From positions 61,017 to 125,016 of the forward strand of contig JAHBYA010000006.1 in assembly GCA_019636195.1 (NCBI GenBank): DNA of 64,000 nucleotides. The letters run 5' to 3'. Positions 5,636 to 11,096 of this stretch are shown one piece after another. The position numbers and the translations under genes are program-made. The notes beneath the pieces are model-generated. The model was not told where the DNA came from. It did no database searches and saw only the letters and a list, made by a program, of their open reading frames with translations. How positions within the stretch are numbered: the stretch's first letter is position 1; the number at the start of each line of letters is the position of its first letter. The DNA comes from Planctomycetota bacterium (GTDB lineage Bacteria; Planctomycetota; UBA8742; UBA2392).

Positions 5636-6889
5636 CTACTTCGTGCGCTCGGCGCGGGAGCGGGTGCTTCGCGAGGCCTGTAATTCGGTTTTGGCCTTGG
5701 GCGCCGACGACTCTGAAGACGCGCCCGATGGCTTGACCGCCACACGGCTTGCGCCCTCGCCGCTCCTGGACTTCTGCGTCGCACGCGACACAGCCGCCTG
5801 CGGCTTGCCCTCAACGGTTGCGATGCGGCTGTTGACCCGCGCCGCCACCGAGTTGTTGCCTGCGCGCTTGGCGATTGCGCGCAGGTCTTCAATGTATTTG
5901 GCCTTGGCTGCGTCATCGGCGGGCGGGGCCTTGCGGGCGGCGCCCTCAAGGCGCTCAAAGTCATCGCGCGCCTTTACGAAACCGGCCATGGTGTCAGAGT
6001 CCTTCCACTTGCCCACGCGGTCAGAGAAATCCTTGACCCCGGGCACCGCCCCGAACTTCTCAATCACCGGCTTGGCGCGCTCCAGCGCGTTGACGGGGTC
6101 GTAGTAGAAGTCGTCCTCAATCTTCTCGATGCGGCGGCGGGCCAGCGTTTCAATGAACTCTTTCATGTAGCCCGCGTCGGCCTTGTCCTTGTCGCTGCTG
6201 GCGCCGGAGCGCTCAACGTCGTCGGCTTCCTGCCATGCCTTGCTGTAGTCGCCGGCCTTGAAGGCGTCGTAGCTGCCCTTGCAGCGCAGCGTGACTTCGC
6301 GCGGCATGCGGTGGCAGTCGCAATTCAGGTTCATGGCAAGTCGGTCGAGGGTGGCCTCGAGTTTCTCCCACTCGCGCTCGTCGCTGTACCAGTCGTGGGC
6401 GCGCACCGTGCCGTGCTGGTCCAGGACAACCGCCTGCGGCGTGCCGATCACTTCGTCCAGCTCAAACATCTCGACGCTCAGGTCTTCAAAGTCCAGCGCA
6501 ACCGGCATCTCCCAGCGCATGCGTTGCAGGTGCTTGCGGGTCTGCTCAATGTCGGCGACGTGCGGGTAATCTTCACGGTCAAACGATGTGTTGATCGCCA
6601 GCACCAGTACACAGCGGCTGTCCTTGTAGCGCTCGTACAGTTGTTGCAGTCTTGGCATCGCGACCTTTTCGCAACCGGCGCAGTCGCGGCGATAGAACAT
6701 GAAGAACACCACGCGGTTTTCAAAGTCGTCCTGCGTCAGGGTTGCACCCTGCACCATCTCCGGGGCGAGCAACAACTCCGGGCACGGCTCGTTCAGGACG
6801 TTGGACTTCGGCTGCTTGTGGCGCTGGGCAGCCAGCGCGCCGGCCAGCAGGGCGCAACACAACGCAATGGCGGGAATTCGGACGGGCAT
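5636..6889 (-). CDS. Secreted thioredoxin-fold thiol-disulfide oxidoreductase (TlpA/redoxin-like) with long C-terminal extension
   Basis: Signal peptide. CxxC motif (DCAGCEK) in a thioredoxin-like N-terminal domain. Charged, low-complexity C-terminal tail. Confidence 0.65.
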   Translation of the reverse strand: MPVRIPAIALCCALLAGALAAQRHKQPKSNVLNEPCPELLLAPEMVQGATLTQDDFENRVVFFMFYRRDCAGCEKVAMPRLQQLYERYKDSRCVLVLAINTSFDREDYPHVADIEQTRKHLQRMRWEMPVALDFEDLSVEMFELDEVIGTPQAVVLDQHGTVRAHDWYSDEREWEKLEATLDRLAMNLNCDCHRMPREVTLRCKGSYDAFKAGDYSKAWQEADDVERSGASSDKDKADAGYMKEFIETLARRRIEKIEDDFYYDPVNALERAKPVIEKFGAVPGVKDFSDRVGKWKDSDTMAGFVKARDDFERLEGAARKAPPADDAAKAKYIEDLRAIAKRAGNNSVAARVNSRIATVEGKPQAAVSRATQKSRSGEGASRVAVKPSGASSESSAPKAKTELQASRSTRSRAERTK

Positions 6890-6960
6890 GGGAGTCTCCT
6901 TGTGGGCGTAAGGATGTCACCCATGTAACGCGCCAGTCGAAAATTCGTTGTACGCAGATG

Positions 6961-8963: not shown

Positions 8964-8987
8964 GTCTGGTTCCCTGGTTTGCGGCAA

Positions 8988-11096
8988 TCACGGAGTCAGT
9001 GGTGCGCCGGCCCACCAATTGGTGCCGGATGGCGGCACGCGCACAGTGTTCGTGCCGCAGTGTGCCTCGCCAACATTGACGTGGTACGCTGACCATATGT
9101 CCACGTACCGCAGGTCCAGCGGGTTGGAGCCGTTGAACAACCCGGCCAGTTGCGAAGCGATGTCGGCCTGCCACTGGTCCTGGCCGCTGATGTCCGGCCC
9201 TTCAGGGTCCGGCATCGCGATATAGGTGGTGCCGTTGGCCGAAGGCAGCGGCACACAGTTCACTACGCCGGGGTTGTACGCGGCCAGGTACCCGCCACTG
9301 CGATTGTGGAACAACGTCGGCAGTTCAATGAAGTCCGCGTCGGTCAGCCCGGTCGCAGCCTTGATCTCGTTGCGCCCCTGGTTGATGCGAGCCTGCGTCT
9401 GGGTTTGAAGCGTGCCCAGCGCGCTGTTGCTGACAATGCTCGCGACAGTGGTCTGGTACCCGGTGCGACCGCTGAACACGACTGCCGAACCCTGGCCGGT
9501 GTTGTTCATGTTGACCAGGATGTTCCATGCCCGCACAGGCGAGGCAATCAGGCACACGTAGCCGCGCGCGGTGTTCGGGGCCGGGACGAACATGGTGTAC
9601 TCATCGACGTGGCCGACCCACAGCCACTCCGACGTGACAGTAACGTGTGCACCCTGGATGTAGTTGGCATCGAAGTACTGGCGGTTGGTGGCTTCCATGT
9701 ACTCAGTGGCGTTCGTCGAGCTGCCGACCAACGTCCCGTTGCCACCGCCAATGTACACACGTCCCCAAGGGCGACCGGTGTGTGGCGGAATCACCTCAAT
9801 GTTGCCGCCGTAGTTCAGCGAAGTGCTGGCGCTTCCGAAGCGGCGCTGCAGCTCAAAGTCCGGCCCCAGCAGGTAATCGACACACCATTGGTCAACCTCG
9901 CGGTTGCGGGCGGCTTGATACACCAGGTCAATCACGCGGCGCGGGCCGCTGCTGCTGGGCGTGATTGTCACGCCGGGTTCGCTGCTGTCCTGGATCCAGC
10001 GGTCCTGGTTGTAACTGGTGCCCGGGATTTCGCGGTAGGTAATGCTGCCGGCCGTGCAGATCTGGCTTAGCACGGTCCGGAAGCTTGCGTTGCTGCTGCC
10101 GAGGTTCACCACATGCAACTGCGACGGCCGCCACAGGTTGGTCGCGAAAATCGGCGGGGCCTGCCGCATGCGCACCGTGTCGCTGGCCTGCACCTGGTTG
10201 CTGCTGTTGCGAATCTCAAGTGTAAATGTGACGTTGCCGTCCCATGTGTTGCTCAGGCGCGTCTTGCCTTCAATGCCAAGCTCAATGTCACCGGCTTGCA
10301 GCGCGGCCGCCGGCAGCGTGAAGCTGGCGCCCGCTGTGTACACGCTTTGCCAGCTGCCGCTGACGTTGCGCCATACGTTGATGCGCCCCTGCGCGCCGGC
10401 GCTTACGTTGATGGTAACCGTGCCGCCGGTCGGTACGCCGGACTGGCGCACAATCATGCGCGCAAGGTCCAGCGCGTCAGCCGCGGTCTTGGTTGCGGAA
10501 AGATAGTCCTCTTGTCCCGCGGTAACCGGGGGCGTCGCAGGCGGCGTGGGACGGTCGTCGTCGTCAATGTTGAAAATGAAGATCGCGCCGCCGTTGCTGC
10601 CCCACTGGTCTTCGTTGGTTTCGTCGGCGGCTGTGATGGTGCCATCGCGATTGGTATCGACGCTCAGGTTCGCAACCACACTGCCCGGCGCGCTGACCGT
10701 GATGTACGCGGTTTTGGACTCGCTGTCGCTGCCCGCGCTGTTGCTGACTGTCAGCGTCACCGTGTAAGTGCCAGCCGACGGATACACGTAAAACGGAAAC
10801 TGGACGGTGCTGTCGACCGTGCCGTCGTTGTTGAAGTCCCATGACCACGAAGTCGGGAAGTTAGTGCTCAGGTCGGAAAAGCTGATCCCCGTGCCAAGAT
10901 TGACTGACGCAGGCGAAGCCGAGAAGTCGGCCACCGGCGCAATCGCTCCGCCGCCGCCGCCGCCGCCGCCGCCGCCGCCGGACGATCCGCCACCCGATGA
11001 ACCGCCGCCACCGCCGCCGCACGCGGCAATCAGCAAGCCAAATGCGCCAGCCATGAACAGATAGCTGAAAGTACGACTGCGTTTGCGTCTGGACAC
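8988..11096 (-). CDS. Lipoprotein with PKD domain fused to a vertebrate-type protein-arginine deiminase (PAD)-like catalytic region
   Basis: Lipobox LIAAC after a basic n-region, then a poly-Gly/Ser linker. PKD domain (WSWDFNNDGTVD ... YTVTLTVSN). PAD motifs DRWIQDS, EWLWVGHVDEYTMFVPAP and GEAHCGTN, with a C-terminal ...NWW tail as in PAD4 ...KWWNMVP. The ORF opens at GTG 11153; the likely start is GTG 11096 or ATG 11054. Confidence 0.8.
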   Translation of the reverse strand: MSRRKRSRTFSYLFMAGAFGLLIAACGGGGGGSSGGGSSGGGGGGGGGGGAIAPVADFSASPASVNLGTGISFSDLSTNFPTSWSWDFNNDGTVDSTVQFPFYVYPSAGTYTVTLTVSNSAGSDSESKTAYITVSAPGSVVANLSVDTNRDGTITAADETNEDQWGSNGGAIFIFNIDDDDRPTPPATPPVTAGQEDYLSATKTAADALDLARMIVRQSGVPTGGTVTINVSAGAQGRINVWRNVSGSWQSVYTAGASFTLPAAALQAGDIELGIEGKTRLSNTWDGNVTFTLEIRNSSNQVQASDTVRMRQAPPIFATNLWRPSQLHVVNLGSSNASFRTVLSQICTAGSITYREIPGTSYNQDRWIQDSSEPGVTITPSSSGPRRVIDLVYQAARNREVDQWCVDYLLGPDFELQRRFGSASTSLNYGGNIEVIPPHTGRPWGRVYIGGGNGTLVGSSTNATEYMEATNRQYFDANYIQGAHVTVTSEWLWVGHVDEYTMFVPAPNTARGYVCLIASPVRAWNILVNMNNTGQGSAVVFSGRTGYQTTVASIVSNSALGTLQTQTQARINQGRNEIKAATGLTDADFIELPTLFHNRSGGYLAAYNPGVVNCVPLPSANGTTYIAMPDPEGPDISGQDQWQADIASQLAGLFNGSNPLDLRYVDIWSAYHVNVGEAHCGTNTVRVPPSGTNWWAGAPLTP

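Follow-up and report, generated by a model that had tools for sequence, protein, structure and literature searches.

A conserved gene pair encoding a predicted lipoprotein peptidylarginine deiminase and a HEAT-like solenoid partner in two bacterial phyla

Results

Gene content of the locus

The sequence analysed here, called the window below, is a stretch of 64,000 nucleotides from a Planctomycetota bacterium (assembly GCA_019636195.1, contig JAHBYA010000006.1, positions 61,017 to 125,016) with a GC content of ~64%. It contains a gene pair that encodes a peptidylarginine deiminase (PAD) and a HEAT-like alpha-solenoid, which we refer to as the partner. The pair is the first half of a row of four consecutive open reading frames (ORFs) on the minus strand at 5636-11096. 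An earlier note on this DNA had stated this arrangement and had read it as one operon of exported enzymes. The ORF listing confirms the four genes, and the gaps of 24, 98 and 71 nt read from the sequence agree with the 25-100 nt given before. The domain identities proposed at that time are essentially right, as the PAD (gene 1), the cyclophilin (gene 3) and the thioredoxin (gene 4) are recognized by Pfam and the HEAT-like character of gene 2 by its predicted fold. The conserved unit, observed in both search directions and across two phyla, is the PAD together with its HEAT-like partner.

The PAD lipoprotein

Gene 1 (8988-11096, minus strand) encodes 702 residues from the GTG at 11096. The order of elements is lipoprotein signal, Gly/Ser linker, PKD domain, PAD_M-like middle domain and PAD catalytic domain. 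The N-terminus from GTG 11096, MSRRKRSRTFSYLFMAGAFGLLIAAC, consists of a charged n-region and a hydrophobic core followed by the lipobox cysteine Cys26 (LIAAC), so that the signal peptide as read from the sequence occupies 11019-11096. Equivalents of n-region, hydrophobic core and cysteine are found in nearly all partner-associated PADs. The public model of this protein (688 residues, start at 11054 instead of 11096) apparently begins 14 codons too far downstream and therefore loses the charged n-region that the relatives keep. The identical (100%) NCBI protein is annotated as 'PKD domain-containing protein, MAG Planctomycetes bacterium'.

The PKD domain (10695-10940; Pfam PKD_4 E 1e-13, PKD E 1e-10) stands in the place that PAD_N takes in vertebrate and cyanobacterial PADs. 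No PAD_N domain was found: the alignment to human PAD4 opens at chain residue 116, and the N-terminus is accounted for by the signal, the Gly linker and PKD. The middle domain (10197-10679) carries the acidic motifs DxNRDG and NIDDDD and aligns with PAD4 residues ~116-300; PF08527 (PAD_M) is among the precomputed matches on close homologues of the gene 1 product. The catalytic domain (9012-10187) was aligned residue by residue to PAD4. It reaches 224.4 bits with PF03068 (cutoff 25; E 3e-66) over positions 3-394 of the 395 in the profile, and phmmer matches human PAD4 over 558 residues (E 4e-44).

The equivalents of PAD4 W347, Q349, D350, R372, R374, E411, H471, D473 and C645 are all kept. The motifs QD, GHVDE and HCGTN align with the PAD4 catalytic residues, and at the substrate-binding residues Trp347, Arg372 and Arg374 the sequences RWIQD and ARNR align with QWMQD and PRNR of PAD4. 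The catalytic D, H, D and C are invariant among 18 PAD homologues. For the Ca2+ sites we take the ligand positions to be those of the PAD4 and PAD2 structures. With this assignment the Ca1 ligands Q349, E353 and E411 are kept, and N153, D155 and D157 appear as NIDDD. The gene 1 product is apparently a catalytically competent PADI-type enzyme. We classify it as a two-domain-type PAD (PAD_M plus PAD_C, PF03068), predicted to be exported by Sec and lipid-anchored via Cys26.

The solenoid partner

Gene 2 (7893-8963, minus strand) begins 24 nt past the PAD stop codon in the same frame and encodes a predicted secreted, all-alpha HEAT-like solenoid of 356 residues. By inspection, its signal peptide MTIRVAILPLLFAPLLAAQ/S is of a plausible Sec type, and signal peptides are also present on the myxobacterial partners. 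The protein has no above-threshold match in Pfam or NCBIfam. The HEAT_2 profile (PF13646) scores 15.6 bits (E 0.02), below its gathering threshold of 27.7, and some homologues carry weak precomputed HEAT hits. The AlphaFold2 model, calculated from an alignment of 16 sequences, is entirely alpha-helical, with a predicted local distance difference test score (pLDDT) of 93 and a predicted template modelling score of 0.88. Its helices are arranged in antiparallel pairs, as expected for an alpha-solenoid.

One loop has the motif P-E-x-Y-x-x-x-R, in which Arg108 (codon at 8640-8642, minus strand) is the most conserved residue of the partner family, present in 96% of 52 sequences. Residues 105-114 are non-helical in the model, and over residues 101-110 the pLDDT falls to a mean of 80. 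A profile search of the whole library shows that the full-length family is small, comprising a few dozen clusters at 50% identity with lengths of ~345-390 residues. The other matches of this search are large HEAT proteins that are reached via the generic central repeats of the partner. The partner is its own family, marked by the PExYxxxR loop and by the position after the PAD gene.

Long stop-to-stop ORFs in four loci (L030, L046, L072 and L084) were considered as natural PAD-partner fusions and rejected, as they are out-of-frame, Arg-rich read-through; the true partners in these loci have separate Met starts and carry signal peptides. In one planctomycete locus (L016:9592-10374), a second ORF with weaker likeness to the partner is present ~7 kb downstream.

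Conservation of the gene pair

Loci around PAD homologues from assemblies were compared together with 80 loci from one-genome-per-species contigs. Homologues of the window proteins were located in these loci by tblastn, and the partner additionally by a profile iterated twice on the loci. With tblastn, 19 of 19 loci with a PAD identity of at least 44% have the partner as the next gene downstream of the PAD. The iterated profile finds it adjacent in 12 of 13 loci of Planctomycetota, 32 of 37 of Myxococcota/'Deltaproteobacteria' and one of two of Bdellovibrionota, and two further myxobacterial loci have a partner nearby. In the profile-detected loci both genes are on the same strand, with an offset of -36 to +151 nt. 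The same profile detects an adjacent partner in none of the 17 cyanobacterial loci and in no actinobacterial, gamma-proteobacterial, Firmicute or archaeal locus. Only three profile hits in these loci are located elsewhere than directly after a PAD gene; the profile is therefore not simply detecting HEAT repeats.

The association holds equally in the reverse direction. A metagenome scan seeded with the partner gave 15 loci, and a PAD gene is found immediately upstream in all 13 of those that have upstream sequence. All-against-all clustering of the neighbouring ORFs revealed no third conserved neighbour beyond clade-local synteny, and the commonest neighbour cluster is a sigma-54-type regulator-like ORF in seven myxobacterial loci. 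Two loci of a single Labilithrix metagenome-assembled genome (L042 and L067) carry two lipoprotein PAD paralogues, only one of which has an adjacent partner.

The presence of the partner goes along with export of the PAD. Nearly every partner-bearing PAD opens with a lipoprotein signal (LVACGG, LAGCGG, IAACS or LIGCS, for example), and the cyanobacterial, actinobacterial and other partnerless PADs have no signal peptide. A scripted comparison gave 37 loci with both lipoprotein signal and adjacent partner, three with the signal only, five with the partner only and 28 with neither (Fisher p = 7e-12, a value that ignores shared ancestry). By eye, the five PADs scored as having a partner and no signal are misses of the regular expression (LFGC and AFAC, for example), and two of the three with a signal and no adjacent partner have a partner elsewhere in the locus. 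A fair statement is that one old lipoprotein-PAD clade kept the adjacent partner while PAD identity fell to ~28-30%.

A mosaic block across the gene junction

A close relative, locus L001, matches the window at ~94-98% DNA identity in most 200-nt bins of 16.7 kb. Within a block at 8411-10183 (minus strand), identified from the sliding identity profile and from segment identity tables, the identity drops to 66-79%. The boundaries are sharp, and the counterpart is approximately L001:6600-8380. Within it lie the PAD catalytic domain and partner residues 1 to ~185; an indel patch in the linker at 10384-10576 also departs from L001. At the protein level, the identity to L001 is 77% for the PAD catalytic domain and 68% for the N-terminal half of the partner, against 97% for the PKD domain, 95% for the C-terminal half of the partner and 100% for the cyclophilin.

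The window block is nearer to the more distant loci L090/L091 (84/82% and 77/80%) than to L001, and the L001 block is at about the same distance from all of the window, L090 and L091 (75-78% and 63-68%). Because of these distances, we conclude that the L001 lineage imported a divergent allele by homologous recombination. Diversifying selection was considered as the cause of the block and rejected, since the sharp boundaries and the outgroup position of the L001 block favour recombination. A tract that includes both the catalytic domain and the N-terminal half of the partner shows that the two genes travel together; as evidence for co-adaptation it is weak.

Transcript ends and promoter region

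The terminator scan found an intrinsic-terminator-like hairpin with a U-run after the partner gene (7844-7876, minus strand). The hairpin itself (7876-7853) lies in the 98-nt gap between genes 2 and 3 and has a 10-bp stem with eight G-C pairs followed by CUUUUGU. Its 9-bp core alone folds at -20.1 kcal/mol, and the scan found only two other terminator-like sites in 6.8 kb. L001 has the same hairpin, and L090 and L091 have a hairpin of the same architecture with another sequence. Over 48 loci, a terminator-like hairpin within 110 nt of the partner stop codon is observed in 12, compared to 1.3 expected from mononucleotide shuffles; most of these 12 loci are in the planctomycete clade. The PAD and partner genes are probably co-transcribed, with a predicted transcript end at the 7853-7876 hairpin. 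A second, GC-rich hairpin (5588-5628; -36.6 kcal/mol, z = -3.5 relative to shuffles) follows gene 4 between convergent gene ends, where it is placed to act as a bidirectional terminator.

The presumed promoter region is the intergenic segment 11097-11254, read from the sequence, from which the PAD gene and the gene of a 919-residue lipoprotein diverge. A scan found no sigma-70 consensus anywhere in 5000-11800, a result that is uninformative for a planctomycete. In three loci of planctomycete relatives (L004:6936-8807, L005:738-2609 and L008:4908-6892), a gene for an extracytoplasmic function (ECF)-type sigma factor and a gene of 426-441 codons are located directly upstream of the pair on the same strand. 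The product of the latter matches no family and is a possible anti-sigma factor. This arrangement suggests envelope-signal control of the pair in the lineages that have the upstream ECF-type sigma gene.

The cyclophilin and thioredoxin genes

Gene 3 (6961-7794, minus strand) encodes a cyclophilin of 277 residues with an N-terminal domain of ~130 residues and a peptidyl-prolyl isomerase domain (Pfam Pro_isomerase, PF00160; 148 bits, E 3.5e-43). The score against NCBIfam PpiA is 81 bits, with a cutoff of 308. The start codon is ATG 7794, preceded at 7 nt by an AAGGAG Shine-Dalgarno sequence. The product begins with MAVTLKLDKPEYALGETIRAEV, and the N-terminus MAVTLKLDKPEY lacks a hydrophobic leader. 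Upstream of GTG 7815 there is no in-frame start codon, and the homologues in L003 and L019 begin at the same place. With neither a hydrophobic leader nor an upstream start, the cyclophilin is not a Sec substrate. Residues 1-130 show only weak DUF4232 and DUF11 similarity, and the architecture is kept in L003 and L019.

Gene 4 (5636-6889, minus strand) encodes a TlpA/AhpC-like thioredoxin-fold protein of 417 residues with a signal peptide, MPVRIPAIALCCALLAGALAAQ, that is of a plausible Sec type by inspection. AhpC-TSA matches with 39.5 bits (cutoff 26, E 6e-10), and the CxxC motif is C70-A-G-C73. With the thioredoxin fold, the CxxC motif and the export signal, the protein is TlpA/ResA-like; the score against NCBIfam ResA, 32.8 bits, is far under the cutoff of 170 and not at equivalog level. 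No family match was obtained for the C-terminal extension of ~230 residues.

Both genes are local to a few relatives. The thioredoxin gene follows only in L001/L002, whose DNA is ~92% identical overall. The cyclophilin gene follows the pair in L001/L002, L003/L010 and L019, and also in L090 and L091, where the contigs break off within the cyclophilin gene. The equally related loci L004, L006-L009 and L011-L018 lack it, as does everything more distant. Both genes are missing from ~70 other PAD loci and from the 15 metagenome loci that were found with the partner. The gene-order check proposed in the earlier note therefore comes out in favour of genes 1 and 2, which are kept together, and not of genes 3 and 4, which drop out beyond close relatives. 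The single four-gene operon is contradicted by this loss and by the terminator-like hairpin between genes 2 and 3, an internal terminator being what the note itself had named as speaking against it. Signal peptides or lipoboxes had been ascribed to all four products. By inspection this holds for genes 1, 2 and 4 and fails for the cyclophilin, so the picture of four secreted enzymes acting together outside the cytoplasm has to be given up. The cyclophilin is cytoplasmic, cyclophilin and thioredoxin are lineage-specific neighbours and not components of the module, and it is by local chance that the genes for PAD, cyclophilin and thioredoxin stand in one row.

Other genes in the window

The lipoprotein gene divergent from the PAD gene (11255-13981, plus strand; 919 residues, LSSCAGGGG lipobox) encodes one He_PIG immunoglobulin-like domain and otherwise matches no family. 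It is found at the same position in L001, L003, L006, L007, L012, L090 and L091 with 62-96% identity and not in other PAD loci. On the other side, two plus-strand genes that overlap by ATGA (2455-4071 and 4068-5591) encode secreted right-handed beta-helix proteins. The product of the second matches a 'choice-of-anchor Q' domain, and its C-terminal end consists of a Gly/Ser stretch with a Cys, a hydrophobic helix and RRQRPAR, for which the MYXO-CTERM score of 19.4 bits falls just under the cutoff of 20. These features are hints of a myxosortase- or exosortase-like sorting system in a planctomycete. A gene for a Na+/Ca2+ exchanger family protein (16008-16982, plus strand; PF01699, E 2e-66) lies ~5 kb from the gene of the PAD, which is of the Ca2+-dependent type; this proximity is probably coincidental.

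Discussion

Our preferred reading, to which we assign a probability of roughly 60%, is that the two genes, beside unrelated neighbours, form a module for citrullination outside the cytoplasm, with the exported PAD bound by the solenoid as its inhibitor or escort. PADs are switched on by high Ca2+, and a cytoplasmic PAD is held off by low Ca2+. An exported PAD would be constitutively active in the envelope unless restrained. This is the rationale for an inhibitor or escort role, which would explain why the partner occurs only with exported PADs. The PAD would be exported by Sec and anchored through Cys26, with the PKD domain on a Gly-rich tether. Outside the cytoplasm, the solenoid would bind the PAD catalytic domain and regulate it as a dedicated subunit, with inhibition or escort as the most likely role; alpha-solenoids are a fold type that commonly binds proteins. 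The Arg108 loop may insert as a pseudosubstrate; an invariant arginine on an exposed loop is how a pseudosubstrate would look. The Ca2+-activated PAD would in this way be kept silent in the Ca2+-rich envelope until it reaches the place where it would act on envelope or foreign proteins. We infer the physical binding, the inhibitor or escort role, the part played by Arg108 and the nature of the substrates from conservation, gene order, the export signals and the predicted fold.

Several observations weigh against this reading. The Ca2-site ligands are altered in the alignment to PAD4 (E351 to S, D369 to Q and S370 to A). Since they are not conserved, Ca2+ regulation may differ from that of PAD4. 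The Fisher p overstates the support, because the lineages are non-independent and the association maybe goes back to a single ancestral event. The lipoprotein PAD of L042 has no partner in its locus, and by eye the same is true of L024 and L088. The recombination in the L001 lineage is a single event, and any contiguous tract across the gene junction would look alike. The terminator after the partner gene could be leaky, with read-through into the cyclophilin gene. The evidence does not separate an inhibitor from a foldase, an adaptor or a substrate.

By analogy to lipase systems, the partner may not be an inhibitor but a PAD-specific steric chaperone or foldase, without which the PAD would fail to fold or to load Ca2+ after Sec export. 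The Lif/LipB foldase gene lies downstream of the secreted lipases of Pseudomonas and Burkholderia. The restriction of the partner to exported PADs would fit such a role, as would an all-alpha scaffold of ~350 residues encoded directly downstream. We consider a foldase unlikely, and it is the alternative that survives best.

Lower odds apply to an effector-immunity pair. In this case the lipoprotein PAD, as an antagonistic or predatory effector, would citrullinate proteins in the envelope of other cells, and the partner in the periplasm would shield the producing cell. Myxococcota and Bdellovibrionota, in which the pair is found, include predators, the downstream protein shares the compartment of the enzyme, and recombination exchanged the enzyme domain jointly with the N-terminal half of the partner, as in toxin-immunity cassettes. 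However, the enzyme domain shows no polymorphism and is a PAD in every case, the neighbourhood contains no conserved delivery-system gene, and 356 residues are large for an immunity protein. L016 supplies the single possible extra partner-like ORF, and the anti-phage defence models of PADLOC gave zero matches among all four proteins of the row.

Similarly improbable is that the partner serves as the physiological substrate, with citrullination of Arg108 or other conserved arginines switching the solenoid, or as an adaptor that recruits targets to the PAD. HEAT scaffolds often serve as adaptors, Arg108 sits in an exposed loop with 96% conservation, and many further arginines are invariant within the planctomycete clade. 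Against this, a dedicated one-substrate enzyme of 700 residues would be uncommon, and cytoplasmic PADs manage without such a protein.

A four-gene operon that equips the periplasm or cell surface for citrullination, prolyl isomerisation and thiol-disulfide exchange is very improbable: the common strand, the short gaps, the export signals on three of four products and the partner-cyclophilin adjacency kept in the subclade L001, L003, L019, L090 and L091 speak for it, but it is opposed by the hairpin between genes 2 and 3, by a cyclophilin without signal peptide that is missing from equally related loci, all Myxococcota and all 15 metagenome loci, and by a thioredoxin adjacent only in L001/L002.

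Starting from the two-gene module with a solenoid that binds the exported PAD, a more far-reaching proposal can be made, which we offer tentatively and do not expect to hold in all its parts. With the solenoid, the PADI family would have its first dedicated protein regulator, which would use its invariant loop arginine to act as a pseudosubstrate inhibitor or as an escort. Together with the PAD it would constitute an extracellular citrullination system of Planctomycetota, Myxococcota and Bdellovibrionota that modifies own, prey or competitor envelope proteins.

Animal-type PADs are the enzymes behind citrullination in immunity, chromatin regulation and autoimmunity, and to our knowledge their roles in bacteria are almost unknown. 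Given an exported PAD clade with a co-inherited partner, one would expect citrullination outside the cytoplasm in environmental bacteria, of which many are predatory. There is therapeutic interest in PAD inhibitors, and the partner is a candidate for a natural protein that binds or inhibits the PAD catalytic domain. A cultured carrier of the pair is Polyangium fumosum DSM 14668 (locus L078).

The literature contains the enzyme family and, as far as we searched, not this variant of it. Harris et al. (2020, bioRxiv 10.1101/2020.07.16.207027) collected 837 bacterial PF03068 PADs with 'highly diverse' gene contexts, concluded that bacterial PADs likely act on distally encoded substrates and described a Streptomyces PAD that makes citrulassin. 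A term search of that text finds no Planctomycetes or myxobacteria. Cummings et al. (2021, PMC8826395) are silent on operons, neighbours, signal peptides, PKD domains, Planctomycetes and Myxococcota. Neither survey describes a partner or a gene context that is conserved, and full-text literature searches for PAD combined with HEAT, myxobacteria or Planctomycetes returned nothing relevant. Within the range of these searches, an exported, lipid-anchored, PKD-bearing PAD with an obligate partner is an undescribed variant of a known family.

The nearest known enzymes are the two-domain PADIs (PAD_M plus PAD_C) of actinobacteria, proteobacteria and fungi as defined by Cummings et al. (PMC8826395), who also found Ca sites 2 and 4 to be restricted to the cyanobacterial and metazoan clade. 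The PAD described here shares with the two-domain PADIs the catalytic domain and its residues, the presence of PAD_M, the absence of PAD_N and Ca2 ligands that are not conserved. It differs in that two-domain PADIs are cytoplasmic, whereas this PAD is a predicted lipoprotein with a PKD domain and the gene of a secreted partner downstream. In comparison to human PAD4 and PAD2 and to cyanoPADI, PAD_M and PAD_C are homologous and D350, H471, D473, C645 and the Ca1 ligands are kept, but the PAD here has no PAD_N and no conserved Ca2 site and would be exported and lipid-anchored. The 17 cyanobacterial PAD loci, in contrast, have neither signal peptide nor partner.

The best-known secreted bacterial peptidylarginine deiminase is PPAD of Porphyromonas gingivalis (PF04371). 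Both enzymes are placed outside the cytoplasm in association with the surface and would citrullinate proteins there. PPAD, however, belongs to an unrelated subfamily, is Ca2+-independent and is exported by the type IX secretion system, whereas the PAD here is of the animal type (PF03068) and a predicted Sec/Lol lipoprotein. We know of no dedicated partner of PPAD.

For the partner, the closest solenoids are HEAT-like proteins of the PBS type, namely the alphaRep designs, the bilin lyases CpcE/CpcF and E. coli YibA. Unlike these, the partner is secreted and forms its own family outside the curated Pfam and NCBIfam models. The genetic logic, a gene for an exported enzyme followed by a gene for a dedicated exported protein, is by analogy that of LipA-Lif and of AprA-AprI, the latter a gene pair of a secreted enzyme and its periplasmic inhibitor. 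No sequence or fold relationship of the partner to either system was detected.

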